Positions 3,586-51,718 are shown, numbered from the stretch's first letter. The stretch: DNA of 64,000 nucleotides from an uncultured Alphaproteobacteria bacterium (GCA_944392275.1 CALXWA010000001.1:4737-68736); one strand, 5' to 3'. Program-made: numbers and translations. The notes: generated by a model from the letters alone, not told the origin.

Positions 3586-3906
3586 ATGGAACTCTATTTG
3601 TTTTTATCATTTGTGGTTATTTATCTCATTTCTTCTTTTTTTATTAGTAAACAAGCCTTGCATAAAATATGGACATTAGCCTTTATTTTGTCGTTTATTG
3701 CGACCTCAATCGCCATAGCTTTTTTGAGAATGAATAATCAAGATGTGATGATGAATGCCGATCAATTGAATTGGTATTATATACTCTATTTGTTTGGTTC
3801 AATGTCGGTTGTGCTCGGAGTGATTAACCTCTGGATGTACCGAGGCCCGTTGTGGAGAAATCTTTTTGGTAAAGACGAGGAAGAAGAGGACGACAACAAC
3901 GTATAA
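3586..3906 (+). CDS. Small integral membrane protein, hypothetical
   Basis: Three predicted transmembrane segments and an acidic C-terminal tail (EEEEDDNNV). GAAGGAGAAG ribosome-binding site before the ATG at 3586. Confidence 0.35.
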   Translation: MELYLFLSFVVIYLISSFFISKQALHKIWTLAFILSFIATSIAIAFLRMNNQDVMMNADQLNWYYILYLFGSMSVVLGVINLWMYRGPLWRNLFGKDEEEEDDNNV

Positions 3907-3970
3907 ATCGCTTTTCTTTTAACGGAATTTGGTGTATGAATCTTTTATCACAAAAAATGAAAGATAAAAG

Positions 3971-5560
3971 ATGTTACGTTTTAGCAATATCAAAATTCCG
4001 GTTGATGCAGGAAAAGAAGTTTTAGAGCAAGAAATTCAAAAACAAATCGGAGCCCATAAAATAATCCATTGGCAATTGGTCAAAAAAGCAATTGATGCCC
4101 GGAGTAGGGATTGTATCTATTTTGTGTATACGGTTGATGTTGATGTCGCAGATGAAGATGAGGTTTTAGCAAAAAGCCCATGGAAGTACATTGAAAAAGC
4201 CCTTCCCAATCTTCCTCTACAAATCAAAAAAGTCACAAGCTCTAGCATCCGTCCTTTGGTTGTCGGAAGTGGACCGGCAGGAATGTTTGCGGCTCTTGTT
4301 TTGGCACAAGCCGGGTTAGAGCCATTGATTATAGAAAGAGGATCGGAAATTTCTCGCCGCCACCAAGAAGTGGATACCTTTTGGCAAAAAGGAAAATTGA
4401 ATCTAAATTCAAATGTCCAGTTCGGAGAAGGAGGGGCCGGAACATTTTCTGATGGAAAACTGATGACCGGAATAAAAAAAGATGCTCACACAGCGTATGT
4501 TTTACAAACTTTTGTGGACGCCGGAGCACCCAAAGAAATTTTATTTTTGGCAAAACCCCACCTCGGAACCGATAATTTAATCAAAATTGTGGCCAATATC
4601 CGAAAAAAAATTGAAAGTCTCGGTGGTGAATATCGTTTTAATACCCAATTAAAAGATATCTCCGTAAAGGACGGAAAAATCGTTTCGGCCATTGTGTGTG
4701 ATGCCGCCGGAAGAGAAGAGGAAATCATAACCAACGCAATTATTTTGGCAATTGGCCACAGTGCCAGAGATACCTTTGAAATGCTGTATAAACGCCAAGT
4801 TCCGATGACGGCAAAACCATTTTCGGTCGGGGTTCGGATTGAGCATCCGCAAAGTTTAATCAATAAAGCACTTTACCACAAATACTGGAATAGTCCCTAT
4901 TTAGGAGCCGCCGATTATAAAATGTCGGTCCATTTGCCAAATGGCCGTTCGGCTTATACTTTTTGTATGTGTCCGGGGGGCGTGGTTGTTGCCGCTGCCT
5001 CAGAACAAAATGCCGTAGTGACCAATGGAATGAGCTATTATGCCAGAGACAAACAAAATGCCAATTCGGCTTTGTTGGTTGGTGTTACGCCGGAGGATTT
5101 TGGAACATCGCATCCGCTGGGCGGCATGTATTTTCAAAGAAACATTGAACAAAAAGCCTTTTTAGCCGGGCATAAAACCTATCAAGCTCCGGCACAAAAA
5201 TGTGGCGATTTTTTAAAAAATATTCCCTCACAATCCGCAGGAGAAGTCCATCCAAGCTATAGTTGCGGTGTTATATGGGGAAATTTAGATACGGTGTTCC
5301 CTGATTATGTAACCGAAACGTTACGTTTGGCAATTAAAGAGATGGATAAAAAATTACACGGATTTAATTACCCGGATGCGGTCTTAACCGGAGCCGAAAC
5401 CCGAAGCTCCTCTCCGGTTAAATTTTTACGAGGAGAAGATAATCAGAGCCCGGTTTTAGGCTTGTATCCTTGCGGAGAAGGGGCAGGCTTTGCCGGCGGA
5501 ATAATGTCTGCCGCCGTTGATGGTATAAAAACGGCCTTAAATCTACTCAAGCAAAAATAA
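3971..5560 (+). CDS. FAD-dependent protein (uncharacterised FAD-dependent dehydrogenase family, COG2509-like)
   Basis: Rossmann dinucleotide motif VVGSGPAGMFAAL. The ~530-aa length and a conserved C-terminal block (LYPCGEGAGFAGGIMSAAVDG) fit this family. Confidence 0.55.
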   Translation: MLRFSNIKIPVDAGKEVLEQEIQKQIGAHKIIHWQLVKKAIDARSRDCIYFVYTVDVDVADEDEVLAKSPWKYIEKALPNLPLQIKKVTSSSIRPLVVGSGPAGMFAALVLAQAGLEPLIIERGSEISRRHQEVDTFWQKGKLNLNSNVQFGEGGAGTFSDGKLMTGIKKDAHTAYVLQTFVDAGAPKEILFLAKPHLGTDNLIKIVANIRKKIESLGGEYRFNTQLKDISVKDGKIVSAIVCDAAGREEEIITNAIILAIGHSARDTFEMLYKRQVPMTAKPFSVGVRIEHPQSLINKALYHKYWNSPYLGAADYKMSVHLPNGRSAYTFCMCPGGVVVAAASEQNAVVTNGMSYYARDKQNANSALLVGVTPEDFGTSHPLGGMYFQRNIEQKAFLAGHKTYQAPAQKCGDFLKNIPSQSAGEVHPSYSCGVIWGNLDTVFPDYVTETLRLAIKEMDKKLHGFNYPDAVLTGAETRSSSPVKFLRGEDNQSPVLGLYPCGEGAGFAGGIMSAAVDGIKTALNLLKQK

Positions 5561-22180: not shown

Positions 22181-22669
22181 ATGAGTAAAGAATATAGTCA
22201 ACAAGACATAAAGGCCATGCAAGAAGCCATCAAGATGTCTTCTGTTTCCATAGAGGGAAAGGAGCTTTTAGGCGGACCATTTGGGGCCGTTATCTATAAA
22301 GACGGACAGCTAATAGCCAAAGGGTGCAACCATGTGCTGCACGATAATGATCCGTCGGCTCATGCCGAAGTTTATACGATTCGCCAAGCCTGCAGCCACT
22401 TAAAAACATGGGATTTGTCAGGATGTGTTTTGTATACGAGTTGTGAGCCATGCCCAATGTGCCTCATGACAGCCAAATGGGCAAATATTCAGCAAATATA
22501 TTTTGCCGCAACCCGTAAAGACGCGGCAGAAATAGGCTTTCGAGATGATGCTTTGTATGAGCTTTTAAAAACAGGCGTTTACGGAACGGCCATAGAAGAG
22601 TGTCGGGACGAAGCCCGTGAAGTCATGCAGCGGTGGTATGCCAAGTTTCAGGAACAAGGGAAATATTAA
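22181..22669 (+). CDS. Nucleoside/nucleotide deaminase (CDA fold; guanine or tRNA-adenosine deaminase-like)
   Basis: Zinc-ligand motifs HAEVYTIRQA and CEPCPMC. Confidence 0.7.
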   Translation: MSKEYSQQDIKAMQEAIKMSSVSIEGKELLGGPFGAVIYKDGQLIAKGCNHVLHDNDPSAHAEVYTIRQACSHLKTWDLSGCVLYTSCEPCPMCLMTAKWANIQQIYFAATRKDAAEIGFRDDALYELLKTGVYGTAIEECRDEAREVMQRWYAKFQEQGKY

Positions 22670-22788: not shown

Positions 22789-22864
22789 TGGTGAGCGCGC
22801 CGGGATTCGAACCCGGGACCCTTTGATTAAAAGTCAAATGCTCTACCGACTGAGCTACGCACCC
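22789..22864 (-). tRNA. tRNA-Lys (anticodon UUU)
   Basis: Reverse complement folds as a cloverleaf: GGGTGCG acceptor, GCTC/GAGC D-arm, anticodon arm TTTGA-CTTTTAA-TCAAA, TTCGAAT T-loop, and an encoded CCA. Confidence 0.85.
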
Positions 22865-23030: not shown

Positions 23031-23339
23031 ATGAGTAAAACAGGACAGGAAGGCAAATATAACATCTTACAAAATGAGGCCGGAGAGATATTAGTGATCA
23101 TTGATCAACGGCGTGGAGGGCCTGAAAATCCACGTTTTGTGTATGATGGAGGGGAAAGAGCTCTTCTTTACCGGAGTCGTGAAAGTGCGGTCTTTTTAAA
23201 TTCAATTGCCGTAGGAGCTCGCGGTCCGTTAAAATCAGTCGATGAGATATCCGTTGCAGAAGTTGATGGAGATGAAGTTGCCAGAGAGTACGTTGTCCCG
23301 GTCAGAATTGTTAAAAGTCTGAGTGCTTTAACACAATAA
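23031..23339 (+). CDS. Small hypothetical protein (paralog of 45089..45439)
   Basis: Shared motif EAGEIlvi...P..PR(f/i)(V/I)YDGgE(R/H)A(L/I)(L/F)LR with the 116-aa ORF at 45089. Followed by a terminator at 23370-23396. Confidence 0.4.
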   Translation: MSKTGQEGKYNILQNEAGEILVIIDQRRGGPENPRFVYDGGERALLYRSRESAVFLNSIAVGARGPLKSVDEISVAEVDGDEVAREYVVPVRIVKSLSALTQ

Positions 23340-23431
23340 TTATACACATAAACGGCTTGATAGAACTAATAAGGGCTTTAAAAGCCCTTATTTTTTGTTA
23401 TATTGGCAACCAATAGGCCTGTTGAAAGTAT

Positions 23432-25105
23432 TTGCAAATGATTTTACAGCTTTTTACCGTATTGTTAAGTTTATCCATCTTGTCCTTATTGTTCAAAAAA
23501 CGTCGGTACTTAAGAATATTTGAATTCTGCTTTTTTGTAACAATGGGGCTTTTGTGTTTTTATATCTGGAACAATCCTCTTAGCAAGCAAATATCACAAG
23601 ACTTAATCCCATGGCTTCCCTATGAAGGATTTAAGGCAAACCTTAATCTGTCATCTTCGGCAGAATTATGGTCCTTGATGTTTATTTTAACGGGAATGGC
23701 CACATTTGTTTTGGGCTTTAATTTTATGCTTCATACAGAAAAAAGGTATTCCCCGTTTTCCTCAATAGTGTTTATGAACTTGGCTTTTGCAATTCTTTTA
23801 TATAACAGTCAAGATTTTCTACAGTTGATGGCCGGCAGTTTCGGCATGACATTGTTGAGTTTTTATGGAATTGAAAACGCTCAAATTCGGACCAAATCGC
23901 TATATTATGGCTTTTTTACCGAGATGTGCCTGTTTAGTGCCTTAGCCATTGTTTTTAGCCGTCTGGATAATATTAATCTCAGTTCTTTGCAAGGTTTTAG
24001 CCAAAAGGGATACCATCGGGATTTGATAGCGATTCTGGTTCTGCTAACGGTTTTTGGCAAAGCCGGACTGATTTTGTTTCAAAACAAATTACTGGACATG
24101 AAAAAATTACCCTTTAGCCGGATTATGAACATTTGTTTTTTGGGAAATATTATCGGTTCGGTGATTTTGTTTGTAAAGCTTCAGCCTTTATGGCAAGCCT
24201 CAAAACTTTCAGAAATCATTATCCCGGCAATGTTGGGACTTTCATTGTTTTGGGGATTCTTTGGAGCGTTGATTATAGACAACATAAAAGCCAAGGCTCT
24301 GTATTTGAACCTGATGCTCTATAGCTTGGTATTTATGTTATTATACCACAACGGCGGTCACTGGGATGAAAGGGTGTTTTATCTTTTTCCGCTGGGAATG
24401 TTGCTCAATTTTTTGTTGGCAATACCGGTTATCTTTGCCTCAAATGAAGTCTATGTCTCTGAGATGGGCGGTTTTGCCAAGTATATGAAACGAAATTACC
24501 TGCTCACAATATTTGCCTGCCTTTGTTGGATGGTTTTCCTAAACCAAATCCGCCCGCAAGGGGAAGAAAACTACATTTATATCTATGAAGGTTTGGTTTT
24601 AACGGCTTTGGCCCATATTTTATACCGCATTTATTGGGGAAAAGAAAATTCCGGAGCTTATGTTATTGCGTTGCTGACAAATATGTCTACTCCGATTTGG
24701 GCTATTCTGATGCTAGGACTCGGATTCGGACTATGGCAATGCGGGGCGGAAACACCTTTGTTGATTTATGGCCTTTATGGGCTTTGGTTAGTCTTGAGTT
24801 GTCTTGGCATCTTTAGATTCCTGGAGCCGTTGGATGAAATGGAAATAATCCAAGATACGGACTTTTTTAAGGGCTTGTACCATTACGTGATTGTGGCTCC
24901 GATAAGTTTATTGGGCCGGATTTTATGGTTGAGTATTGACTTTTTGATTATTGAAAGGAGTGTCATCGGCGGTATTTCCGAAATGACAACCTTAGCGATT
25001 CGCGGATTGCAACGCATCCAAAACACCACTTGGCTCAATTATTTATTCATGCTTTTGGTTGGTTTAGCCATTATTCTTTTAGGGATAGGAAATTGTCATG
25101 ACTAG
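23432..25105 (+). CDS. Polytopic membrane protein, possible NuoL-like antiporter-family subunit (very divergent)
   Basis: About 16 hydrophobic helices over 557 aa. Sits first in an L-M-N-like tandem directly upstream of birA. Canonical NuoL motifs are not recognisable by eye. Confidence 0.3.
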   Translation: MQMILQLFTVLLSLSILSLLFKKRRYLRIFEFCFFVTMGLLCFYIWNNPLSKQISQDLIPWLPYEGFKANLNLSSSAELWSLMFILTGMATFVLGFNFMLHTEKRYSPFSSIVFMNLAFAILLYNSQDFLQLMAGSFGMTLLSFYGIENAQIRTKSLYYGFFTEMCLFSALAIVFSRLDNINLSSLQGFSQKGYHRDLIAILVLLTVFGKAGLILFQNKLLDMKKLPFSRIMNICFLGNIIGSVILFVKLQPLWQASKLSEIIIPAMLGLSLFWGFFGALIIDNIKAKALYLNLMLYSLVFMLLYHNGGHWDERVFYLFPLGMLLNFLLAIPVIFASNEVYVSEMGGFAKYMKRNYLLTIFACLCWMVFLNQIRPQGEENYIYIYEGLVLTALAHILYRIYWGKENSGAYVIALLTNMSTPIWAILMLGLGFGLWQCGAETPLLIYGLYGLWLVLSCLGIFRFLEPLDEMEIIQDTDFFKGLYHYVIVAPISLLGRILWLSIDFLIIERSVIGGISEMTTLAIRGLQRIQNTTWLNYLFMLLVGLAIILLGIGNCHD

Positions 25106-26525
25106 TCCGTTTGCCTTATTGTCTCTTATTATTGCTTTGCCGTTTTTGGGAATGCTGTTTGTCTTAACGGCAAAAGATGAAGAAAATACCGGCAAAAATG
25201 CCTTAAATGTCTGTATCTTTACGGTTTTGGCCAACATAACGCTAATCTGGCGTGTCTTTATGCTCATTGATGATAAAAAAACAACATTACAGCTGTTTGA
25301 ATATTTGAAATGGCTGCCGCGACCGCAAATTGATATTACACTGGCGGTCGATGTCTTTTCTTTGTTGTTGATTTTGGCAGTTCATTTAGCAATTTTAATT
25401 GGTTTGGTCGGGGTCAAAAACAATACGGTAAAACAAAAATCTCAAATGGTCTTTACCTTGTTATTTTTAAGCATGATAACCGGATTTTTTGTAGCGGAAG
25501 ATATTTTTTCTTTTTATATCTTTTTTGAGGCGATGCTCCTTCCGTTGTTTATGTTGTTGGGAATATCGGGGGGAATAAAACGTCAAGAACTTATTTATCG
25601 TTTTTTTCTGTATAATTTTTTTGGTGCTTTAATTTTGTTTGCCGCAACCATGACGTTGTATCATTATTACGGAACCATGACATTGCAACAGCTGCAAAAT
25701 CTAAAAATTAAAGACGAGATCGAATTTTATGTTTGGGGAGCAATCTTTATTTCCTTCTTATCTCGGATACCAATCTGGCCGTTCCACTACTGGATATCTT
25801 CCATAAATTCGGGGATTCGCAATCCATTGGTCTTTATCATTTGTTCGGTTATGCCGCTAACGGGCATTTATGCGTTTATCCGTTTTCTTCCATCGGTAAG
25901 CAGCCTTCCGGTAGAACTTTATTCAACATGGGTCAGCATTATCGGTATTATTACCATGCTCTTTATTTCTTTAATCGGGTTTATCAACAAAGATTCGCAG
26001 TACAAGATCTTTTCTTATATAACCGTGTGTTATATCCTGTATTTAATTGGGGTTTATACCTTAGATGAATTGATATTGCTTAATATTGGGTATTCGGCAT
26101 TTAGCTTTATTATTATTTTTGCCGCATTAGAAATTTTATCAGATTACATCTACCGCAAAGAAGACCAATACGGGAGTGGTACACTGGGGGCATTATGTAA
26201 GGTAAAAAGGCTCTCATTTGCTTATTCTTACTTGACCATTGCCGCCGTAGGAATGCCGTTATCCGCAGTCTTTATTAATAATTTTTTGATTCTTTCCAAA
26301 TTGTTAGAAACCAACCTCAGAATGGGAATGTTATTAATCGGAACCCTCTTTATGGTAGGGATAACCTTGCTACAAGAGCTGCATCGCCTAAAGACGGAAA
26401 ATTCTTCTTGTCGGATGAAAAAAGAAGATGATATTTCTCTTGCACTGTTTGCGTTTATGCTGGCGATAATGTTTATTTTATTTATGTCGTTTATCCGTCC
26501 GTTATGGTTTGTGCTAGATGCCTAG
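25098..26525 (+). CDS. NuoM/NuoN-family (complex I antiporter-like) membrane protein, divergent
   Basis: FYIFFEAMLLPLFMLLGISGG...YRFFLYNFFGALILFAATMTLYHYYGTMTL aligns with the NuoM N-terminal helices. The core block IPIWPFHYWISSINSGIRNP...TGIYAFIRF keeps the fold but lacks the canonical WLPDAHVEAPT residues. Confidence 0.5.
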   Translation: MTSPFALLSLIIALPFLGMLFVLTAKDEENTGKNALNVCIFTVLANITLIWRVFMLIDDKKTTLQLFEYLKWLPRPQIDITLAVDVFSLLLILAVHLAILIGLVGVKNNTVKQKSQMVFTLLFLSMITGFFVAEDIFSFYIFFEAMLLPLFMLLGISGGIKRQELIYRFFLYNFFGALILFAATMTLYHYYGTMTLQQLQNLKIKDEIEFYVWGAIFISFLSRIPIWPFHYWISSINSGIRNPLVFIICSVMPLTGIYAFIRFLPSVSSLPVELYSTWVSIIGIITMLFISLIGFINKDSQYKIFSYITVCYILYLIGVYTLDELILLNIGYSAFSFIIIFAALEILSDYIYRKEDQYGSGTLGALCKVKRLSFAYSYLTIAAVGMPLSAVFINNFLILSKLLETNLRMGMLLIGTLFMVGITLLQELHRLKTENSSCRMKKEDDISLALFAFMLAIMFILFMSFIRPLWFVLDA

Positions 26526-26535
26526 GAGTTAAAAA

Positions 26536-27963
26536 ATGTTTTTACAAAACTGGTTATTTTTATTACCCGAGTTATCCATCATAGGGGGAATTATTGTCAG
26601 TATAATGCTTCAGGCTTTGCGGAGTGAAAACACGCCGAAAACTTTTTTTACCGTTAGTAAATACAGTTTACTTGTGGCATTATTGTCCACCATAATCTTT
26701 TATAACAAAAGTGCTTTTCCGGCTCTGTGGCACAATACATATTACACCACTTTATTCAAAACGGTGTTGTTGTTTGTTGCGTTAAGCTGGTTTTATGTTT
26801 CCTCCAAGTGGTTCTTAGGCAAAAATAAATCTTCTTTTGACTTTTATACCTTAGCCATGACGGAAGTTTTGTTGCTGGAGCTGTTAATTTCGGCTCAACA
26901 TCTGTTATTGGCAATTATTTTAATGATAGGGGTTTGTTGGTTAACCGGACGTTTGTTAAGGCTTTATCAAGATCAAGAAGAAATTGCGGAACTAACAAAA
27001 CTATACGGCTTTTTTACAATCATTTTCAGCCTCTTGTTTTTAGGGGGATATTATATCTTATATCAAGAAGTTTTGAGCGGAGATTTATTGACCATTTCAC
27101 ATTACTTAGAACAGGCAACTCCACACCGTTATGAAACATATTTTGCCGTTGGAATGATTATAAGCGGCATGTTGTTTTTGTTGGCTCTGGCTCCGTTCCA
27201 TTCCTGTTTTGTCGCGATTGTATCAACGGCAATTTTACCGGTCAGCGGATTTGTGTCTTTGGTTCCGGTATTGGCCTATTGGGGATTTTTCTTGCCCTTG
27301 ATATTAAAAACATTTGCCCCGTTCCAATCCCTAATAACCGTAATACTCGTCTCCTTTTCGGGAATATCCTTGTTTATTGGAGCTTTTTCAGCCAATGGGG
27401 CTACCAATCTTCGCCGTTTATTTGCCTACAGCACGGTTTATCATATGGGGTTTATGGTTTTAGGCGTCTTAAGTTATAATAACGCTTCTTTATTAGCCGT
27501 ATTTGTTTATCTTTTGGTTTTTATAATGGCTATGTTTGGAATTTACAGCGGTTTTATGGGTTTTAAAAGTCGGGGAGAATATTTGGTAGATTTAGAGGAT
27601 ATCCGCGGAGCATCAAACGCCCGTCCTTATATATCGGCAGCGTTTTTGGTCTTTATGTTTTCCTTAATCGGTATGCCGCCGATGAGTGGTTTCTTGGGCC
27701 TGATATCCATCATTAATAATTTGATAAGCTCTCACGGATGGTTGATGCTGGGTATGGTCTTGTTGTCCTTGCTTTTAATGTCCAACGCCTATCTTCAGCT
27801 TATCCGCAAAATTTATTTTGAACCGCAAAATTTATCTTTTGACCGTACCGACAAAGCAATTTATATTTGCCTTTTGGTTAATATAATATTAGTTGCCACA
27901 ACCATGATAAATCCGTCTTTTTTATTTAAGGATGCGGCAAAAGTTTTGAGTGGAGGATTTTAA
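26536..27963 (+). CDS. NuoN-like antiporter-family membrane protein, divergent
   Basis: Third member of the tandem. Similar helix pattern (LAPFHSCFVAIVSTAILPVSGFVSLVPVLAYWGF). Its stop abuts the birA start. Confidence 0.45.
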   Translation: MFLQNWLFLLPELSIIGGIIVSIMLQALRSENTPKTFFTVSKYSLLVALLSTIIFYNKSAFPALWHNTYYTTLFKTVLLFVALSWFYVSSKWFLGKNKSSFDFYTLAMTEVLLLELLISAQHLLLAIILMIGVCWLTGRLLRLYQDQEEIAELTKLYGFFTIIFSLLFLGGYYILYQEVLSGDLLTISHYLEQATPHRYETYFAVGMIISGMLFLLALAPFHSCFVAIVSTAILPVSGFVSLVPVLAYWGFFLPLILKTFAPFQSLITVILVSFSGISLFIGAFSANGATNLRRLFAYSTVYHMGFMVLGVLSYNNASLLAVFVYLLVFIMAMFGIYSGFMGFKSRGEYLVDLEDIRGASNARPYISAAFLVFMFSLIGMPPMSGFLGLISIINNLISSHGWLMLGMVLLSLLLMSNAYLQLIRKIYFEPQNLSFDRTDKAIYICLLVNIILVATTMINPSFLFKDAAKVLSGGF

Positions 27964-28692
27964 ATGCCGGAGAGAATAGATAATTGGTGGTGGCAAGATT
28001 TTGCAACACTTGGCAGTACAAATGACAAAGCCATAGAACTAAGCTCAAACCCTCCGGCACCGTTTTTTGTGGTAACGGCGGCAGAACAAACAAAAGGACG
28101 AGGGCGACGCGGCCGAGAATGGCAAGGCTATAGCGGAAACTTGTTTATGTCGTTAGCCCTTCCGATAGCAACACAAGATTGGGGGCAGTTGGTTTTTGTG
28201 GTCTCTTTGAGCTTGCTTGAAACCATTAAGTTTTTTGAGGAAGGGGCACAGGTCTGTCTTAAGTGGCCAAATGATGTTTTGCTGAATGATTGTAAAATTT
28301 CGGGGATTCTGCTTGAAAAAGGGAGCGGAGAGTATATAATCATCGGCATTGGTGTTAATCTGACAGCAGCTCCGCAAAAGCTAGAGGCCGTTTTGTATCG
28401 GGCAACATCTTTGGCAGCAGAGGGCATAAACGTTAATCGGATTGATTTTTTGTGTGCTTATCTGAAACATTTTACCAAAAATGTATCTTTATGGAAGACG
28501 GAAGGCTTTGTAAAAATACAACAGTTGTGGCAACACAACGCCAAAGGTCTTAATGAAGAGATAACCGTCAATATGCCCAAAGAGCAAAAAAAAGGAATTT
28601 TCAGAGGGATCGATGAAAACGGTTTACTGAGATTGGAGCATTCCGGCATGATTGAAAAAATCTCTGCCGGAGACGTATTTTATAAAGAATAA
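27964..28692 (+). CDS. birA: Biotin--[acetyl-CoA-carboxylase] ligase BirA (no DNA-binding domain)
   Basis: GRGRRGREWQ motif and KWPNDVLLNDCKISGILLE. Confidence 0.8.
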   Translation: MPERIDNWWWQDFATLGSTNDKAIELSSNPPAPFFVVTAAEQTKGRGRRGREWQGYSGNLFMSLALPIATQDWGQLVFVVSLSLLETIKFFEEGAQVCLKWPNDVLLNDCKISGILLEKGSGEYIIIGIGVNLTAAPQKLEAVLYRATSLAAEGINVNRIDFLCAYLKHFTKNVSLWKTEGFVKIQQLWQHNAKGLNEEITVNMPKEQKKGIFRGIDENGLLRLEHSGMIEKISAGDVFYKE

Positions 28693-28708
28693 GGAAGAAT
28701 TTTAATCA

Positions 28709-30475
28709 ATGGATCATCAAGAAACACAATTAGAGCTTGATTTAAGCACGACAACAACCCCCGGCAACACGAAGGTCGAGTTTTTGCATCAACCGGGGAT
28801 ATATTTTGTTGCCTTAGGTGGTGCCGAAGAGGTCGGTTTTAATATGTACGCCTATATTGTCAACGGCAGAATTATTGTTGTTGACTGTGGTTATGGTTTT
28901 TTAAACGATGATTTTCCGGGGATAGAGTTGGGCTTAGCCGATGCCTCTTTTTTAGAAAATTATCAAGATTGTATAGAAGGATTATTCATAACCCACTCTC
29001 ACGAAGATCATTTTGGTGCGATTGCTCACGTATGGCCCAGATTAAAATGTCCGGTTTACGGTACGGCATTTGCTTTGGGGCATATTATGGACCGCCTGAA
29101 GGAATACAAATTGGATGAGGAAGTTGAATGTCATACCGTAAAAGACGGAGATGTTATCAAAGTTGCCGATTTTTCCGTAGAATACGCCTACTTGGTTCAT
29201 TCAACACCGGAAACATCGGCCCTAATCATCCGGACCCCTTACGGCAATATTGTCCATGCGACCGATTGGCGTTTTGATGATGAAAAAATGGATATTCTTC
29301 CGACCAATTGGAAAGCATTTAAAAAAGTAGCCAAAGAAGGCGTTGCACTATACGTCGGAGATTCGACCAATATGACCCATTTAACAGCCGAGCCGTCGGA
29401 AATGGAAATTCGGCAAAGTTTAATCGACTTGGTCCCAAAGTTTAAGAATACTTTGGTTGCAACCTGCTTTGCTTCAAATATCATGCGGATGGAAAGCTTG
29501 ATTATGGCCGCAGACAAGGCCGGGAGAACACCGGTCATTTCCGGTCGGAGCTTGAACCAAAACATGCGCTTGGCCAAAGAATGCGGATATCTGCAAAACT
29601 GCCCGCCTTATGCCGAATCAATTGATGCCAAAGATATTCCGTTAGATAAAATGTTATACATTTGTGCCGGTTCGCAAGGAAATTATCGGAGCGGACTTTC
29701 ACGTATTGTCAATGGCGAAAATAAAGATATTCAATTAGGCAAAGGAGACGCCATTATCTTTTCTTCCAAAATTATTCCCGGTAATGAGGAAAAAATTGAA
29801 AGAATGCAAGAAAAACTCCGTGATGCCGGTGTCGATGTCATAACATCGGAAGAATATTTGGTTCATACCTCCGGCCATGGTGGTAAGGAAGAAATCAAAA
29901 AAATGTATTCTCTCCTTAAGCCAAAATTAGTTATTCCGGTCCATGGTGACAAACGTAATATTCGTGAACAGAAAAGATTTGCCACGGAATGCGGCGTCAA
30001 AGATGTTCTGATTGCCCGCAACGGAGAGGTTGTGCTTATTGAGAACAACCATGCCGCAATTGTAGCCGAAGTCCCAACGGATATTCTTGGTGTAGACCGC
30101 CGCAACTTGACCAACCTCAGTTCCCCGCTTATCAAAAACCGCAAAAGAATAGCCTATAATTGCAGTTTGTTTATTAGCGTTGTTTTGGGAGAAGATTGGC
30201 AAGTAGAGGATTTGCAAATTTCTTCAAATGATATATTAGAAGAAAAAGCATTTGCCGATCTTGCTTCCCGCATCAAGGAGGAAATGATACCGCTTATTCC
30301 CGAAGAAGCTGCTCGCCTCAATTATCGTCAGGCTCAGATAGAAGAGTTCATTCGTTCGCGTATTCGCAAACTGATTTTTAAGGAAACCGACATCAAGCCG
30401 GTAACCACACTGCATTTTTATAAAAGAGGCATGATAAGCACGACCGACAGCGGAGAAGAAAGCGAAAATTTATAA
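28709..30475 (+). CDS. rnj: Ribonuclease J (metallo-beta-lactamase/beta-CASP RNA-processing family)
   Basis: HTHSHEDHFGAIAHV metal motif, beta-CASP middle region and C-terminal domain; 588 aa. Confidence 0.75.
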   Translation: MDHQETQLELDLSTTTTPGNTKVEFLHQPGIYFVALGGAEEVGFNMYAYIVNGRIIVVDCGYGFLNDDFPGIELGLADASFLENYQDCIEGLFITHSHEDHFGAIAHVWPRLKCPVYGTAFALGHIMDRLKEYKLDEEVECHTVKDGDVIKVADFSVEYAYLVHSTPETSALIIRTPYGNIVHATDWRFDDEKMDILPTNWKAFKKVAKEGVALYVGDSTNMTHLTAEPSEMEIRQSLIDLVPKFKNTLVATCFASNIMRMESLIMAADKAGRTPVISGRSLNQNMRLAKECGYLQNCPPYAESIDAKDIPLDKMLYICAGSQGNYRSGLSRIVNGENKDIQLGKGDAIIFSSKIIPGNEEKIERMQEKLRDAGVDVITSEEYLVHTSGHGGKEEIKKMYSLLKPKLVIPVHGDKRNIREQKRFATECGVKDVLIARNGEVVLIENNHAAIVAEVPTDILGVDRRNLTNLSSPLIKNRKRIAYNCSLFISVVLGEDWQVEDLQISSNDILEEKAFADLASRIKEEMIPLIPEEAARLNYRQAQIEEFIRSRIRKLIFKETDIKPVTTLHFYKRGMISTTDSGEESENL

Positions 30476-31144
30476 CTCAATCGTCATTCCCGGTTTGGCC
30501 AATCCGGCAAAGCCAAGCTTTCTGGCCTTATCTTCCAAAAAGTCATAATCTTGCGGAGCATAATGCGTAAGATAAGTCTTGGCTTTCATTTCCAAAGTGG
30601 CTTTTCCCAACTCATCTAATCCGACATGTCCGGAATTTCCGCTTTTGTGAACATCATGAATAATAATTTTTGCTTTTTGGGCAAACGGACTATCCAACAA
30701 AGAAAGAGAAGTATCTCCGCTGTAAAGAAGAGCTTCTTCAACAAATAAAGCCTTACAGTCCATGCCTTTTGCATGCGGAACTTCCATAGTTTCAATCTTG
30801 AGACCTTTTTTGGCCTGGACAACCATATCAAAGGCATCGTTCCCGTCACACAAACGCAAAAGTTTTTCCCAGCTAACCCCACCGACAAAAGTTTTTTGCT
30901 TCAAAATATTGTGCCGATACTCAAGTAAAGCAACAGCCGAGCCACAATGGTCCTGATGGGTATGGGATAATAAAATGGTGTTAATAAATTTGGCGTATTC
31001 TTTCTCTAAAATCACCGGAAAAACATTAAAACCGCAATCTAATAAAACAGCATTGTCTTTTTCCAGCCATAACAGAACCGAACTGTTTGTTGTGTTTTTG
31101 GCAAAAGCCGATCCGCTGCCTAAAATTTCTATTTTCATAATCAA
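30470..31144 (-). CDS. MBL-fold metallo-hydrolase
   Basis: HTHQDHCGSAVAL (HxHxDH) motif; 224 aa. Convergent with rnj, overlapping its end by 6 nt. Confidence 0.55.
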   Translation of the reverse strand: MIMKIEILGSGSAFAKNTTNSSVLLWLEKDNAVLLDCGFNVFPVILEKEYAKFINTILLSHTHQDHCGSAVALLEYRHNILKQKTFVGGVSWEKLLRLCDGNDAFDMVVQAKKGLKIETMEVPHAKGMDCKALFVEEALLYSGDTSLSLLDSPFAQKAKIIIHDVHKSGNSGHVGLDELGKATLEMKAKTYLTHYAPQDYDFLEDKARKLGFAGLAKPGMTIEL

Positions 31145-41978: not shown

Positions 41979-43319
41979 GTGACGGAAATACTGCCAAACA
42001 TATTACATGATATCAACAATCTGGAAACGGCCCAATATTACGGAAGTGTTATTGGCGTTCAGGGTTTGTTTGTGGAAGTTGGCGGAATTCGTCATCAATT
42101 ATCCATCGGAGACCGATGCAACGTTCATACCAACAGCGGAAAAATCGTTCCCTGTGAGATTGTCGGTTTTAATAATGATCGCTTAATGTTAATGCCCTAC
42201 GCCTCAATGGATGGGATCGGAAGGGGGTGTCGGGTTGATGTTGAAAATGCCAAACCGGTTATCTATCCGCATCCTTCATGGTTAGGGCGTACGATTAATG
42301 CATTTGGAGAGCCGATTGACGGTAAGGGGCCGTTATTAAAAGGTGCGATTCCGTATTTAATCAAAAATTCACCGCCGCCGGCTCAATTTCGGGATCGTGT
42401 GAAGGGCAAGGTTGATTTAGGTGTCAAAGCGGTTAATACGTTTTTGACCATATGTAAAGGTCAGCGTATGGGGATTTTTGCCGGTTCCGGTGTCGGCAAA
42501 TCGACCTTAATGTCCATGATGGCCAGACATACCAACTCGGATATTTCCGTAATCGGTTTGATTGGAGAACGCGGGCGAGAAGCAAAAGAATTCGTGGAAG
42601 ACGTTTTAGGAAAAGAAGGTCTGGAAAAATCAATTTTAGTCTTGGCAACCTCCGATGAAAGTCCGTTGATGCGTCGCCAAGCGGCTTATACCACCATGGC
42701 GGTTGCCGAATATTTTCGGGATCAGAAAAAAGATGTTTTATGCATGATGGATTCAATTACCCGCTTTGCAATGGCTCAAAGAGAAATCTCTTTATCGGTA
42801 GGAGAGCCTCCGGCTTCAAAAGGCTATACGCCGAGCGTTTTTGCCGAGCTGCCAAAATTATTGGAAAGAGCCGGCCCCGGAGCCGGAACCGGAACAATTA
42901 CCGGTTTGTTTACGGTTTTGGTAGATGGAGATGATCATAATGAACCAGTTGCCGATGCCGTTCGCTCAATTTTAGACGGACACATTGTTTTGGATCGAGC
43001 AATAGCCGAACGCAATCGTTATCCGGCAATCAATATTTTGCGTTCCATTTCTCGTACGATGCCCGATTGTGACACTAAAGAAGAATTTGCCTTGGTCTCC
43101 AAAGCCCGAAAATACATATCAACGTATGAAGACATGGCGGAATTAATCCGTTTAGGGGCTTATAAAAAAGGCTCTAACCGTGAGGTAGATGAAGCAATTT
43201 TCTATTATCCGAAGATTGAAGAATTTTTATCCCAAGGCAAACAAGAAAAATTTTCTCTGGCCGAATGTTATGAAATGCTCGGCAAAATTTTAGCTACTCC
43301 CTATGTTCCGGAAAACTAA
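41979..43319 (+). CDS. fliI: Flagellum-specific ATPase FliI (T3SS-type export ATPase)
   Basis: Walker A GIFAGSGVGKSTLMSMMAR. F1/T3SS ATPase core. Followed by a fliJ-like gene. Confidence 0.75.
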   Translation: MTEILPNILHDINNLETAQYYGSVIGVQGLFVEVGGIRHQLSIGDRCNVHTNSGKIVPCEIVGFNNDRLMLMPYASMDGIGRGCRVDVENAKPVIYPHPSWLGRTINAFGEPIDGKGPLLKGAIPYLIKNSPPPAQFRDRVKGKVDLGVKAVNTFLTICKGQRMGIFAGSGVGKSTLMSMMARHTNSDISVIGLIGERGREAKEFVEDVLGKEGLEKSILVLATSDESPLMRRQAAYTTMAVAEYFRDQKKDVLCMMDSITRFAMAQREISLSVGEPPASKGYTPSVFAELPKLLERAGPGAGTGTITGLFTVLVDGDDHNEPVADAVRSILDGHIVLDRAIAERNRYPAINILRSISRTMPDCDTKEEFALVSKARKYISTYEDMAELIRLGAYKKGSNREVDEAIFYYPKIEEFLSQGKQEKFSLAECYEMLGKILATPYVPEN

Positions 43320-43331
43320 AGGACATGAGAA

Positions 43332-43751
43332 ATGAAAGATTCTCTCCAAACACTCAGCCGGATTGAAAAATTTAAGATTGATGAGCAAAGAAAGCTCCTG
43401 ACAGAACAGCTGGAGCGGGAAGAAAAACTGCAAAAAGACCTAAAAATGTTGGAAACTCGCTATCAACAAGAAAAAGAGTTTCAAGCCCAAAATGAAGGAA
43501 TAGGGGATTTTGGGGCATATGTTAAAAGATATCTGGAAATCCGAACGGATTTGCAAGATAAAATTGCCGCCGTGCAAAAAAAAATAGAAGAAATCCGCGA
43601 TATTATTGCCGATATGTTCCGTTCGCAAAAAACATATGAGATTGTAGAAGCCAACCGGAAAAGAAAAGCTCAAAAAGAACAGGACGACAAAGAGCAAAAG
43701 ATGCTTGATGAAATCGGAACCAATACTTATATTAAAAACAAACAAAAATAA
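43332..43751 (+). CDS. fliJ: Flagellar export protein FliJ-like coiled-coil protein
   Basis: 139-aa all-helical coiled coil immediately downstream of fliI. Assigned on position and composition. Confidence 0.45.
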   Translation: MKDSLQTLSRIEKFKIDEQRKLLTEQLEREEKLQKDLKMLETRYQQEKEFQAQNEGIGDFGAYVKRYLEIRTDLQDKIAAVQKKIEEIRDIIADMFRSQKTYEIVEANRKRKAQKEQDDKEQKMLDEIGTNTYIKNKQK

Positions 43752-43768
43752 TTTTATAAGGAGAGACC

Positions 43769-44350
43769 ATGTTTAAAATGAAAGAGCTTCCTTACGGAGC
43801 CAATGCCTTAGAGCCCTATATTAACGCCGGAACCATAGAATTCCATTATGGCAAACACTATAAAACCTATGTTGACAATCTGAACAAGTTGATTGCAGGG
43901 ACAGAGTTTGAACATATGTCCTTAGAAGAGATTATCAAGAAAACGCATTCTCATCCGCAATATCAGGGCATTTTTAACAACGCCGGACAAGCCTGGAATC
44001 ATGAATTTTATTGGCAATCCATGAGCCCAAACGGTGGCGGACATCCCACAGGCGAACTAAAATCAAGAATTGAAAAAGATTTTGGTTCTTATGAAAAATT
44101 CCGCGAAGCATTCAAAAATGCGGCTGTTAGCCAGTTTGGCAGCGGTTGGGCGTGGCTGGTAGACAATAACGGAAAGCTTGAAGTTATCAAAACATCAAAC
44201 GCCGATACGCCGATAGCCCTAGGACTAAAACCATTATTGACGATAGATGTATGGGAGCATGCCTATTACCTGGATTATCAAAACCGCCGTGCCGATTATG
44301 TCGATAGTTTTTTGGATCATTTGGCAAATTGGGACTTTGCTGCCAAATAA
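43769..44350 (+). CDS. sodB: Fe/Mn superoxide dismutase
   Basis: LPYGANALEPYI..IEFHYGKHYKTYV, WNHEFYW, DVWEHAYYLDYQNRR. Confidence 0.85.
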   Translation: MFKMKELPYGANALEPYINAGTIEFHYGKHYKTYVDNLNKLIAGTEFEHMSLEEIIKKTHSHPQYQGIFNNAGQAWNHEFYWQSMSPNGGGHPTGELKSRIEKDFGSYEKFREAFKNAAVSQFGSGWAWLVDNNGKLEVIKTSNADTPIALGLKPLLTIDVWEHAYYLDYQNRRADYVDSFLDHLANWDFAAK

Positions 44351-44353
44351 AAA

Positions 44354-44392
44354 AACAAGAACTCCGTTTTCAAACGGAGTTCTTGTTTTTTT
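44354..44392 (+). terminator. Intrinsic terminator after sodB
   Basis: AACAAGAACTCCGTTT-TCA-AACGGAGTTCTTGTT 16-bp stem followed by a T-run. Confidence 0.7.
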
Positions 44393-44521
44393 AACGAAGG
44401 TTTAAGCTGTTTGGTATTATTATCAAAATAATTAGCAAGCGTTGTGCTTTTATATTGACTAATTTTGTCTAAAATGGTATGGTTAATTAAAAGAACAACA
44501 AAATAAGAAAGGCTCAAAGAA

Positions 44522-48853: not shown

Positions 48854-51718
48854 TTAATTACTCTGAGAGTTTGACTGGCTGAATATTTTTCGTTGTATAA
48901 AAGACAACTTGCTTGGAGAAAAAGAAGCTTTTGCTCGAGGTTTTTCTTTGGTACTAATTCTTCCTTGTTTTTCCATAATCAGATTTTGTAATTTTTGAAC
49001 TTCTTCTTTTGAAAGTTTTTTATTAGTAGGCGTTCTTAAAGTAACAGTCTTTTTCTCGTGTTCGTCAGATTGTTCGGTTTGAGCCGATTGTTTATTTTTC
49101 GTGACAACCTCATTAATATCCTTTGCCGCCAAACCGACATCTATGGCGGTACTGACACCTGTTCCTACTCCGGGAAAACATCCTGCCACACCGGAAAGAA
49201 CTTCGCCGCAAGCACCTTTCCAATCGCCCTTTTTTATTCGATTAAAAGCAAAATAGCATCCGGCCGCGGCACTCAGAATTGGAATTTTTTTCAAAACAGA
49301 CTTACCGACAGCACTTCCGGCTGTTTTTGCAACAGTTTTAGTCACGGCCTTCCCGATAGCGGTTTGAGCAGCTTTTCCCGCCACTTTAGCCGTCGTCTTT
49401 TCAATAGCTTTAACGACTTTTGTATCTGCAACTTTTTCAGCTGCTTTCATATAGACTTTTCCGGCAGTTGTAGTATTTAGAACCTTACTGCCTTTTTCAA
49501 CGGTTTGTTCTATTGCCGTATTAATTACATTATCCGCTTTTGCAATACCGGACACTATTCCTTGTGCAGAATTTACACCGACATGAACTGCCGTTTTTGT
49601 TGCGGCTTTTTCGCTAACTTCAGCAACAGCTTGCCCGCATGAAAGAAGCTTTTCTTTCTTTTGGGCAAGGAAGTCAGGATCTCTGACTTGATGAATGATT
49701 CCTTTGTTTAATTCTTCCTTTTGTTTTTGTAATCGGGCATAAATATCTGGAGCGTTTCGATAAGTATCTTTCATATCAGCTTGCCGCGAACTAAGAATAT
49801 GTTTGGTTAATTTATCAGGATTCTCCGGGACAGGTATGTAAACATCTTTATAATGCATATCGTCTAATTCATAAGAAATATGCATTATTTTTGCTTTTAA
49901 CGGATTTTTTTCGGGGGTAACAAAAGTTTCGGCATCTGTTCTTTTAATATCATACTTTGATCCGTCAGTCAAAATATTCGAACCTGCTAAATAGCCGTTT
50001 AGTGCTTCTTCTTTTGTAATCATACGATCATTGGGAAAATTTCGAGAGCAGTCCTCCAATCCAAAATTTTTGAAAAATTTATCATCGGGACTTTGCTCAT
50101 AAATATTTATAAAACCAACACGGACATCCTTAACACCGTCAAACTTGCCAACCGACGAAGAAACATAAAAATCATTTGTTGCTGATTTTCCGTTTGGTAA
50201 TGATGCTCCATCATATACTGATGCATATTTTAAATGAGGTGTTGCATAAACCATTCCTGTTCGTCCCGGACGCTGACTAAACTGACAGAAATCATCAGAA
50301 GCGATACTTCCGGAAAACAAGTACTTATCTTTGGGATATTGGTGCGATAACTCATCAAGAGAATTGTATGATTTTGGAAGCTCATCAACAGAAGAAATTT
50401 CTAAACGCTGTAAAATAGCTTGTTGCTTTTCTTCCGGTATTGATAGTCCACTTTTGATTCTTTCTTTATATGCTTCGGCCAGATAGAGTTTACCTAATTC
50501 ATTGTTAATGACATCTTGAGGTAAACGTTCTCTTATTATATCTTTTAATAATTCTTTTGGTTTTATCGGAACAACGATACCTTGAGTAATATCAGCTTGA
50601 GCAAGATCATCAATCAGTTTGGGCATAATTTCTTTGGCTTCTTTGACGGTCATTGTGGGAGAAAAGACCTCAAATTTGAAGCTATCTGAAGTATAGCTCA
50701 TATCTTTATGCAGCAACCATTGATTTGTATCATCGCCAATTGATAAACCATTATATGCAAATATATTTTTAGCTGCATTACCGTCTTTTAAACGCAGATT
50801 AAACATGACAGTTTCATTGTCGGCCATATTATCAAGCCCTTCTATATAGTTAGAAACATTGTATGTCTTAGGGTTTTTTATGTCATTTTGTATCTCTTTT
50901 GCAAGAATTCTGATATTTTTATCTTCTTGTATATTAAAGTTACTGTTTTGAAAGTTAGTTTTAATATTTTCAATAGTCTGCACTTGAGTTTGAATATCTT
51001 TTTGTTGGTTGGATATTGTATTTTGCAAATTTTTATTTGATTCTAGATACTCTTGTGAAGCGGTTTCAATCTTTTTTTTATCTCGTTCGCCAATGGAATA
51101 AAACTTAGATTTAAGGGGATCGAAACAATTTTCTTTAGGAAGGTTATCAAGCTGTTCTTTTAAGTTATTTTCTTGATATTTTTCGAGAAAAACATTTAAC
51201 TGTTGATTAGCCTCTTCTATTTTTTTGCTGTTCCTTATTCGGTTAAGAAGGCCTTGCGGCTTTTGAGTTAAGGCATTAAAATAATATTTCTTATTTTCTG
51301 TGATGAACTTTCCTGTTTCAGTATAATTTGATAATAATTTTTTTAAGTGTTCCTGCCGTTCAGGAGGATATTTTGCAATCAGATCCTCTATATCTTTTTC
51401 AAAGCCATTCAATTTTTCATTAAAATCGGCAAATGCAGACTGATTTTGCTGCAAACTTAAAACTTTTTCAGATAATGCATTTAGCTTAGCATAACGAGAG
51501 GAAAGAACGTCTTTATAAAATTCGTCAGTAATTTTTTTATTTTTTTCCGTAATAAATTTTTCAATATCGCCATTGGTTTCAATTTGTTCAAGAAGATCTG
51601 AAGCCCAAGGCATTTTCCAAATCTCACTTTTATCAGTAAAAAGTCGGCCTTTTTCTTGAAACCAAAAAGGAACGACTAATGCATTGTCCAAATTTTCCCA
51701 ATAATCAGCATCACGCAT
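48854..51718 (-). CDS. Giant Asn/Lys-rich hypothetical protein (coiled-coil N-terminal half; glycine-zipper-like C-terminal segment)
   Basis: 954-aa ORF in a region much more AT-rich than its surroundings. C-terminal AAGCYFAFNRIKKGDWKGACGEVLSGVAGCFPGVGTGV. No recognisable enzyme motif. Confidence 0.5.
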   Translation of the reverse strand: MRDADYWENLDNALVVPFWFQEKGRLFTDKSEIWKMPWASDLLEQIETNGDIEKFITEKNKKITDEFYKDVLSSRYAKLNALSEKVLSLQQNQSAFADFNEKLNGFEKDIEDLIAKYPPERQEHLKKLLSNYTETGKFITENKKYYFNALTQKPQGLLNRIRNSKKIEEANQQLNVFLEKYQENNLKEQLDNLPKENCFDPLKSKFYSIGERDKKKIETASQEYLESNKNLQNTISNQQKDIQTQVQTIENIKTNFQNSNFNIQEDKNIRILAKEIQNDIKNPKTYNVSNYIEGLDNMADNETVMFNLRLKDGNAAKNIFAYNGLSIGDDTNQWLLHKDMSYTSDSFKFEVFSPTMTVKEAKEIMPKLIDDLAQADITQGIVVPIKPKELLKDIIRERLPQDVINNELGKLYLAEAYKERIKSGLSIPEEKQQAILQRLEISSVDELPKSYNSLDELSHQYPKDKYLFSGSIASDDFCQFSQRPGRTGMVYATPHLKYASVYDGASLPNGKSATNDFYVSSSVGKFDGVKDVRVGFINIYEQSPDDKFFKNFGLEDCSRNFPNDRMITKEEALNGYLAGSNILTDGSKYDIKRTDAETFVTPEKNPLKAKIMHISYELDDMHYKDVYIPVPENPDKLTKHILSSRQADMKDTYRNAPDIYARLQKQKEELNKGIIHQVRDPDFLAQKKEKLLSCGQAVAEVSEKAATKTAVHVGVNSAQGIVSGIAKADNVINTAIEQTVEKGSKVLNTTTAGKVYMKAAEKVADTKVVKAIEKTTAKVAGKAAQTAIGKAVTKTVAKTAGSAVGKSVLKKIPILSAAAGCYFAFNRIKKGDWKGACGEVLSGVAGCFPGVGTGVSTAIDVGLAAKDINEVVTKNKQSAQTEQSDEHEKKTVTLRTPTNKKLSKEEVQKLQNLIMEKQGRISTKEKPRAKASFSPSKLSFIQRKIFSQSNSQSN

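Follow-up and report, generated by a model that had tools for sequence, protein, structure and literature searches.

A NuoL/M/N-like gene triad ahead of birA and rnj, without neighbouring nuoA-K, in uncultured gut Alphaproteobacteria

The three membrane genes and their family

We analysed a stretch of 64,000 nucleotides (nt) from an uncultured Alphaproteobacteria bacterium (GCA_944392275.1, CALXWA010000001.1:4737-68736), hereafter the window, in which five tightly packed genes on the + strand occupy 23.4-30.5 kb. The first three encode membrane proteins related to complex I's antiporter-like subunits NuoL, NuoM and NuoN, which we call P1, P2 and P3, and together the triad; they are followed by birA (biotin-protein ligase) and rnj (RNase J). 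P1, the NuoL-like protein (23438-25105, +), has 555 amino acids (aa); an alternative TTG at 23432 gives 557 aa, and the ATG at 23438 is the start in relatives and in the gene callers. P2, the NuoM-like protein (25098-26525, +; 475 aa), overlaps the end of P1 by 8 nt, and the stop codon of NuoN-like P3 (26536-27963, +; 475 aa) directly abuts the start codon of birA (27964-28692, +). The birA product matches TIGR00121 at 153 bits (cut-off 83.1) and, being 242 aa long, is too short for the N-terminal DNA-binding domain of a bifunctional BirA. The last gene, rnj (28709-30475, +), matches RNase_J_b_CASP (112 bits), RMMBL, Lactamase_B_2 and TIGR00649 (371.5 bits). The original prediction, made on this DNA alone, had described an orphan, divergent NuoL/M/N-like triad in the canonical place before birA and rnj, and its coordinates, its gene order and the flank it gave upstream (tRNA-Lys, a deaminase and a small open reading frame, ORF) are all correct.

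The membership of P2 and P3 in the antiporter-like family is directly seen in their single sequences. Both match PF00361, P2 with an E-value of 2.5e-26 (93 bits) and P3 with 4.6e-30 (105 bits; cut-off 21.5). The top NCBIfam model is NuoM (TIGR01972, 182 bits) for P2 and NuoN (TIGR01770, 175 bits) for P3, each under its curated cut-off (263.8 and 332.6, respectively), and these scores far exceed those of the hydrogenase-subunit models as well as those of the best MrpD models (74.5 bits for P2 and 60.5 bits for P3). In the PDB, P2 best matches Paracoccus Nqo13 (8qby_M, 3.6e-29), followed by plant mitochondrial Nad4, E. coli NuoM, Thermus Nqo13 and MrpD, a ranking indicating alphaproteobacterial complex I ancestry; the best match of P3 is chain N of the Paracoccus denitrificans complex I (8qby_N, 2.4e-22). 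The P2 motifs quoted in the original prediction (FYIFFEAMLLPLF..., RIPIWPFHYWISSINSGIRNP) are present in the sequence. Its view that the third protein is more divergent than the middle one fails by hidden Markov model (HMM) score, where P3 is not behind P2, but holds for the functional residues described below.

P1 required a profile. As a single sequence it gave no match in Pfam, in NCBIfam (NuoL models included) or in the PDB, so that the PF00361 assignment, positive for P2 and P3, reaches P1 only by way of its orthologues: the orthologue in one related locus (L020) matches PF00361 with 29.7 bits, and a profile built from 41 P1 orthologues matches NuoL/ND5 chains in the PDB (8e9g_L, E-value 2.2e-22). 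The same profile matches 8qby_L in two stretches, of which query residues 468-554 align with chain residues 615-701, i.e., the lateral helix HL and transmembrane helix (TM) 16. An AlphaFold2 model of P1 built from 17 sequences (predicted local distance difference test, pLDDT, 77; predicted template modelling score, pTM, 0.79) has about 16 predicted TM helices, with a 56-residue lateral helix at 474-529 and then a C-terminal TM anchor at 531-553. When this model was compared with PDB folds by Foldseek, the top 50 were all chain L/ND5/NdhF, aligned over the full length. The triad is thus NuoL-, NuoM- and NuoN-derived, in L-M-N order, as had been proposed, by family-model and PDB matches for P2 and P3 and by profile and fold matches for P1. 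The proteins are nonetheless far from their references (13-24% identity to the Paracoccus and E. coli subunits), and P1 is only 24-47% identical among relatives.

Public annotation of these genes is inconsistent. In 'Proteobacteria bacterium CAG:495' they appear as 'NADH dehydrogenase I subunit L / chain M / subunit N', and newer PGAP annotations give 'hypothetical protein' or 'proton-conducting transporter membrane subunit'. One entry in the representative library (P0273, 1214 aa) is a canonical NuoM-like protein with several near-identical repeated blocks, and is probably an assembly or gene-calling artefact.

Two family-specific P2 motifs matched 198 species genomes in a GTDB-based collection, and we examined 80 of these loci. 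They come from uncultured gut and rumen Alphaproteobacteria, e.g., CAG:495, 'Candidatus Scatocola faecigallinarum' and metagenome-assembled genomes (MAGs) from human, ruminant, rabbit and chicken. We take the CAG:495/Ca. Scatocola lineage to belong to the GTDB order RF32, an unconfirmed placement. The order P1-P2-P3-birA-rnj is found in all 80 loci wherever the contig reaches far enough, and P3 is directly followed by birA in 83 of 87 loci. In 78-81 species the three ORFs are all unbroken and nearly constant in length, i.e., mostly 545-569 aa for P1 (four are shorter, 428-473), 460-481 aa for P2 and 460-492 aa for P3. An exhaustive search of cluster representatives added more divergent members, 34-44% identical to P2; below them lies a gap down to ordinary NuoM at 25-28% identity, and no intermediate between the two was seen in that search. 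The local gene order is the same in four divergent members (relatives 34-42% identical in P2). We found no description of the triad in the literature on RF32/CAG-239 physiology or on orphan nuoLMN, the only trace being a 'NuoN-like' entry in Table S2 of PMC6431628.

Selection and the loss of proton-path residues

Purifying selection on the triad is strong. With the Nei-Gojobori method, one multiple alignment per gene and 14 species pairs that are unsaturated (dS 0.05-1.5) in every gene, the median ratio of non-synonymous to synonymous substitution rates (dN/dS) is 0.094 for P1, 0.032 for P2 and 0.066 for P3, in the same range as for the neighbouring birA (0.091) and rnj (0.036). Pairs with one locus (L033) were left out because its rnj values were artefactual, coming from a short aligned segment. 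Within the species, seven near-identical copies of the locus differ in P2 by 88 synonymous and 0 non-synonymous changes (summed pairwise differences). P2 is the most conserved of the three and carries family-specific invariant motifs. By sliding-window conservation, TM5 (0.93) and TM7 (0.92) are its best-kept segments, and in P1 the score is highest where the lateral helix begins (GRILWLxxDFxxIER, 0.80). Judged by these substitution patterns, the triad genes are functional protein-coding genes under strong purifying selection and not relics. Since selection is as strong as on the neighbouring housekeeping genes, the module seemingly has a function that needs no redox partner.

The original prediction had also allowed that a lost complex I left the three genes behind as relics. 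If this means decay, it can be abandoned: that the triad is decaying and persists through transcription of the essential birA and rnj would agree with the loss of most catalytic residues, with the low identity of P1 among relatives, with the apparent operon shared with birA and rnj and with one locus that lacks the triad (L120, see below), but ORFs that are full-length in about 80 species and still so in relatives with only 34% identity, the family-specific invariant motifs, dN/dS values of 0.03-0.09 (about the birA level or lower) and the 88 versus 0 changes in P2 make it very improbable.

Canonical proton translocation in the complex I/Mrp family depends on a set of conserved Lys and Glu residues. 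We aligned 74-81 family members of each protein with the E. coli and Paracoccus references and followed these residues in E. coli numbering; most of them are replaced in all three proteins. In NuoM-like P2, the TM5 glutamate E144 is kept in 79 of 81 sequences; the TM7 lysine K234 has become arginine (R223) and the TM12 glutamate E407 asparagine (N395) in every one of the 81, and TM8 K265 is replaced by Leu, H322 by Tyr and H348 by Phe or Tyr. The alteration of the TM7 block of NuoM, which had been noticed in the window, is thus borne out. An arginine in place of the TM7 lysine cannot shuttle protons at physiological pH. In the divergent P2 members among the cluster representatives, E144 is lost too (T/Q/A/S), and the Arg, PxWPF, the Asn and a C-terminal PLWF motif are kept.

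In NuoL-like P1, the TM5 GWEGVG motif is deleted together with E144, the TM8/TM11 residues H254, H334, H338 and K342 are replaced, and the TM12 K399/D400 segment is gapped; 72 of 74 sequences retain the TM7 lysine K229 as K208, and at D178 there is still an acidic residue (D or E). NuoN-like P3 has lost TM5 E133 (to I/P/F), TM7 K217 (to L/M) and TM8 K247 (to V/P); at TM12 K395 the window has Leu, and 57 of 78 relatives have Lys or Arg. The triad retains the Pro/His signatures that mark TM7 and TM12 as broken helices, the lateral helix and a few charges, and in complex I structures such charges lie near the subunit boundaries. By these alignments, the central hydrophilic axis by which complex I and Mrp link their half-channels is interrupted in all three proteins.

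The ancestral place and the flanks of the locus

The position of the triad has a clear counterpart. In a Paracoccus genome (locus L090) the order is nuoG ... nuoH-I-J-K-L-M-N-birA-coaX-rnj, which agrees with the canonical place that had been proposed ahead of birA and rnj. The type III pantothenate kinase gene coaX lies between birA and rnj there (L090:12255-13034), and in the window and its relatives nothing but 16 nt separates the two genes (28692-28709). Where nuoK would be expected in the window, there are only a spacer of about 100 nt and a small ORF. We used tblastn with E. coli NuoA-N as queries against the 64-kb window and against ±10 kb around the triad in the 80 species loci, and found no NuoA-K; only M, N and sometimes L matched, apart from two weak ferredoxin-type NuoI matches far from the triad. 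The absence of nuoA-K upstream, which had been predicted, is accordingly borne out locally. A Pfam look-up of the genes called in the window, covering about 1-36.5 and 38.9-61.7 kb, listed no NuoH/J/K, Mrp small-subunit or DabA family and no respiratory gene; the genes seen are housekeeping, flagellar and stress genes. By position, the triad is orthologous to nuoL-M-N; it is best read as vertically inherited, and the simplest history would be that nuoA-K were deleted in place.

Directly upstream lies a small gene, hyp102 (23031-23339, +), that encodes a 102-aa soluble protein and is a conserved neighbour. It gave no match in Pfam, NCBIfam or the PDB, and its single-sequence model is poor (pLDDT 40). 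It is 49-84% identical across the clade and, with a dN/dS of 0.012, the most conserved gene in the neighbourhood. It directly precedes the triad in 64 of the 80 loci of the genome collection and in all four loci of more distant relatives (4/4). A metagenome scan with hyp102 gave 84 loci, in 75 of which the triad directly follows; six contigs are too short, two loci (L125 and L145) are ambiguous and one (L120) is triad-less. In the latter, from a related lineage (Ga0123353_10087558, 3632-5016), hyp102 is followed after a 10-nt gap by birA-rnj, the whole triad and the junction element described below being absent. We considered hyp102 as an obligate fourth subunit and rejected this, as it has its own terminator, is not adjacent in about 14 of the 80 loci (in at least two it is elsewhere on the contig) and is kept where the triad is deleted. 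It probably belongs to the ancestral flank and is no obligate partner. We likewise rejected L125 (VOFK01002153.1, 8500-15600) as a case of a pseudogenised triad: its L- and M-like genes are split, but rnj is fragmented too, and sequencing errors of the indel type are likelier.

Between hyp102 and P1 lies a junction element of 37 nt (23368-23404, +), with the full sequence AATAAGGGCTTTAAAAGCCCTTATTTTTTGTTATATT. It consists of a perfect palindrome with a 9-bp stem, AATAAGGGC TTTAAAA GCCCTTATT, a T-run and TATATT. In a scan for terminators and promoters, the hairpin with its T-run (23368-23392) ends the hyp102 gene, and a promoter-like site (23377-23404; TTTAAA-16 nt-TATATT, with an extended -10 TG) overlaps it about 35 nt ahead of the P1 start. 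At 36 of the roughly 107 intergenic positions, almost all within the junction element, 15 species agree, although the flanking proteins are only 25-70% identical. The element is found in 60 of the 64 loci in which hyp102 is adjacent, is absent in 13 of the 14 in which it is not, and is absent from the distant relatives; it is single-copy in the window, and no Rfam family was found for it. It looks like an intrinsic terminator overlapping a promoter-like site and may act as such; a palindromic operator overlapping the promoter is one possible reason for its degree of conservation. The same scan gave no convincing terminator or promoter inside the five-gene cluster, and we infer that P1-P2-P3-birA-rnj would be transcribed as one operon from a promoter just upstream.

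Farther upstream are the tRNA-Lys gene (22789-22864, minus) and a gene for a CMP/dCMP-type (cytidine/dCMP-type) deaminase (22181-22669). On the other side, a 224-aa protein of the metallo-beta-lactamase fold (30470-31144, minus) is convergent with rnj and overlaps its stop region by 6 nt; it is weakly similar to the Anti-Pycsar protein Apyc1 and to the N-terminus of RNase Z, and is present in only 19 of 87 loci. A 954-aa ORF (48854-51718, minus) has no Pfam family on record and occurs on many contigs of the same species. At about 42000-44400 the window carries flagellar FliI/FliJ genes and an Fe/Mn superoxide dismutase gene, though relatives are described as strict anaerobes free of oxidases.

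A probable distal membrane arm and its relation to known systems

The physiology of the relatives is known from published surveys. Gut MAGs such as Azospirillum sp. CAG:239 have been classed as strict anaerobes without terminal oxidases, and for CAG:239 no bc1, complex II, menaquinone or ubiquinone synthesis genes are listed, the complex I entry reading only 'NuoE-like, NuoF-like, NuoN-like' (PMC6431628, Table S2). The NuoE/F-like proteins are parts of a HymABC-type [FeFe]-hydrogenase, and pyruvate:ferredoxin oxidoreductase is also present in these organisms (PMC4967309).

On this background, we consider it likely that the triad is an L-M-N module kept without its redox partner and without the canonical proton path for a non-respiratory role in the membrane. 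It would be the leftover distal membrane arm of an alphaproteobacterial complex I, still in its ancestral place, after nuoA-K had been lost in an obligately anaerobic, gut-dwelling lineage. The three proteins would assemble side by side into an L-M-N plate held together by P1's lateral helix. Work of the complex I type is not expected of such a plate: no electron-input module was found, and most of the buried Lys, Glu and His residues of the canonical proton path have been exchanged for Leu, Met, Pro, Asn, Phe, Tyr or a non-titratable Arg; by the known mechanism, the triad would not pump protons.

What the plate does instead can be stated at lower strength. It could be a structural membrane platform, i.e., a non-pumping 'pseudo-antiporter', which we hold as a tentative but reasonable possibility; R223 and E144 of the M-like subunit, K208 and D/E162 of the L-like subunit and the TM12 Lys/Arg of most N-like subunits would then serve as buried contacts between the subunits. 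Rewired conduction or sensing that takes no redox input, with the highly conserved TM5/TM7 core of P2 at its centre, is possible, if somewhat doubtful. In a fuller form of the latter, to which we give a similarly guarded, minor chance, the L-M-N plate would be an autonomous machine of strictly fermentative, quinone-free gut Alphaproteobacteria, in which a buried Arg/His/Asn cluster of the M-like subunit replaces the Lys/Glu relay and supports a new activity independent of electron transfer, e.g., conducting another ion or solute or sensing the state of the membrane; if true, it would be an antiporter-like module that has come to function and evolve apart from redox chemistry and from the Mrp small subunits alike. 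The suggestion in the original prediction that the genes are kept for another role, e.g., as a scaffold, is the best fit with purifying selection, though the role itself is only inferred.

It is not our wish to press this reading too far, and several points weigh against it. The deletion in L120 indicates that the role of the triad is dispensable in some backgrounds; as the triad can be lost, it seems to be beneficial but not indispensable. Beyond the locus, the absence of nuoA-K, of Mrp small subunits and of other partners is drawn from one published survey of a related draft genome together with the local context, and CAG:239, with its 'NuoN-like' entry in that survey, is a presumed carrier of the exact triad. 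The assembly of an L-M-N trimer is suggested by the conservation of the lateral helix (and of interface charges). Ion conduction of some kind could persist despite the loss of the canonical residues, and the fact that the conservation of P2 peaks in the discontinuous-helix core of TM5 and TM7 can be explained by a surviving transport-like activity no less well than by a purely structural role.

Among the alternatives, the triad may be the membrane module of an unrecognised multi-subunit enzyme (hydrogenase-, formate- or ferredoxin-linked, of the Mbh/Ehr/Fpo kind) whose other parts are encoded elsewhere. To our knowledge, every enzyme of that kind joins its antiporter-like subunits through NuoH/NuoB/NuoD-like and NuoA/J/K-like proteins. 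Linkers of these types are unlisted for CAG:239 (PMC6431628, Table S2) and none lies near the triad in the 80 species, and the canonical proton-path residues that such enzymes keep have been lost. Antiporter-like subunits are, on the other hand, reused in many modular enzymes, and partial complex I operons have been discussed (PMC4453560); the relatives encode HymABC-type [FeFe]-hydrogenases with NuoE/F-like subunits (PMC4967309), and our search for partners covered the window and ±10 kb around the triad in the relatives. On balance, we regard such an enzyme as unlikely.

A cation/proton antiporter that works free of redox chemistry in the manner of Mrp, or another ion transporter of the antiporter fold, appears slightly less likely again. 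The PF00361 fold is there, the Pro-containing broken-helix motifs of TM7 and TM12 are retained, and charges have been kept in the L-like TM7 (Lys), in the M-like TM5 (Glu) and TM7 (Arg) and, as Lys/Arg, in the TM12 of 57 of 78 N-like proteins; the TM5/TM7 core is, moreover, the top-conserved part of the M-like subunit. However, MrpB/C/E/F/G-like genes are not adjacent, the Nuo models outscore the Mrp models (182 versus 74 bits for P2, 175 versus 60 for P3), the TM8 Lys, TM11 His and TM12 Lys/Glu that link the half-channels are replaced in all three proteins, and the TM5 Glu is lost in the more divergent members. The Mrp-like option, which the original prediction had offered, is weakened by the missing neighbours and by the replacement of most Lys/Glu residues, and classical Mrp-like antiport as the role of the triad is improbable.

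It is also very hard to sustain that a full, functioning complex I uses the three as its true NuoL/M/N, with nuoA-K encoded at another site in the genome: some bacteria do have split nuo clusters (PMC3144371) and the older automatic CAG:495 annotation names NADH dehydrogenase subunits L, M and N, but the pumping residues are replaced in all three proteins, the scores fall far under the NuoM and NuoN cut-offs at 13-24% identity, the CAG:239 survey has no NuoA-D, NuoH-K, quinone synthesis or oxidases (PMC6431628), and the newer PGAP names avoid the assignment.

If the triad is indeed a distal arm kept without its redox partner, it offers a natural experiment on what antiporter-like subunits do without a redox arm, which is a debated question, and separates what folding and assembly require (the broken helices, the lateral helix and some interface charges) from the proton-path residues that pumping requires. 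A new role for an ancient module may be indicated, in bacteria that are abundant but uncultured in human and animal guts. For genome annotation, the triad genes should not be taken as evidence of NADH:quinone oxidoreductase activity.

Compared with known systems, the triad shares with complex I NuoL/M/N (Nqo12/13/14; ND5/ND4/ND2) the fold, the L-M-N order and the place before birA/rnj; P1 has the lateral helix and C-terminal anchor of NuoL, and the Pro/His motifs of the broken TM7 and TM12 are common to both. Unlike complex I, it has no local NuoA-K, and reports on a relative mention no quinone or redox module; P1 also falls short of E. coli and Paracoccus NuoL by about 60-150 residues. The Mrp (CPA3) antiporters are alike in that their PF00361 subunits MrpA and MrpD work without an electron-transfer module, as is proposed here for the triad. 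MrpA carries a NuoL-type lateral helix, and Mrp keeps the TM5 Glu and the Lys residues of TM7, TM8 and TM12. Mrp requires MrpB/C/E/F/G, whereas PF00420, PF04039, PF01899, PF04066 and PF03334 are all missing from the Pfam listings of the triad loci. In DAB/MpsAB, a NuoL-like protein (DabB/MpsA) has likewise been recruited outside respiration. That system is a single antiporter-like protein with a PF10070 partner (DabA/MpsB); the triad, in contrast, consists of three proteins in complex I order and has no DabA-like neighbour in the Pfam listings. Finally, hydrogenosomes with their NuoE/NuoF are another case in which only part of complex I has been retained by an anaerobe of aerobic descent (PMC4967309). 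Hydrogenosomes, however, keep the soluble NADH-oxidising module with its cofactor chemistry, whereas it is the distal membrane arm that seemingly survives here, its canonical chemistry gone, so that the triad would be the mirror image of hydrogenosome reduction.

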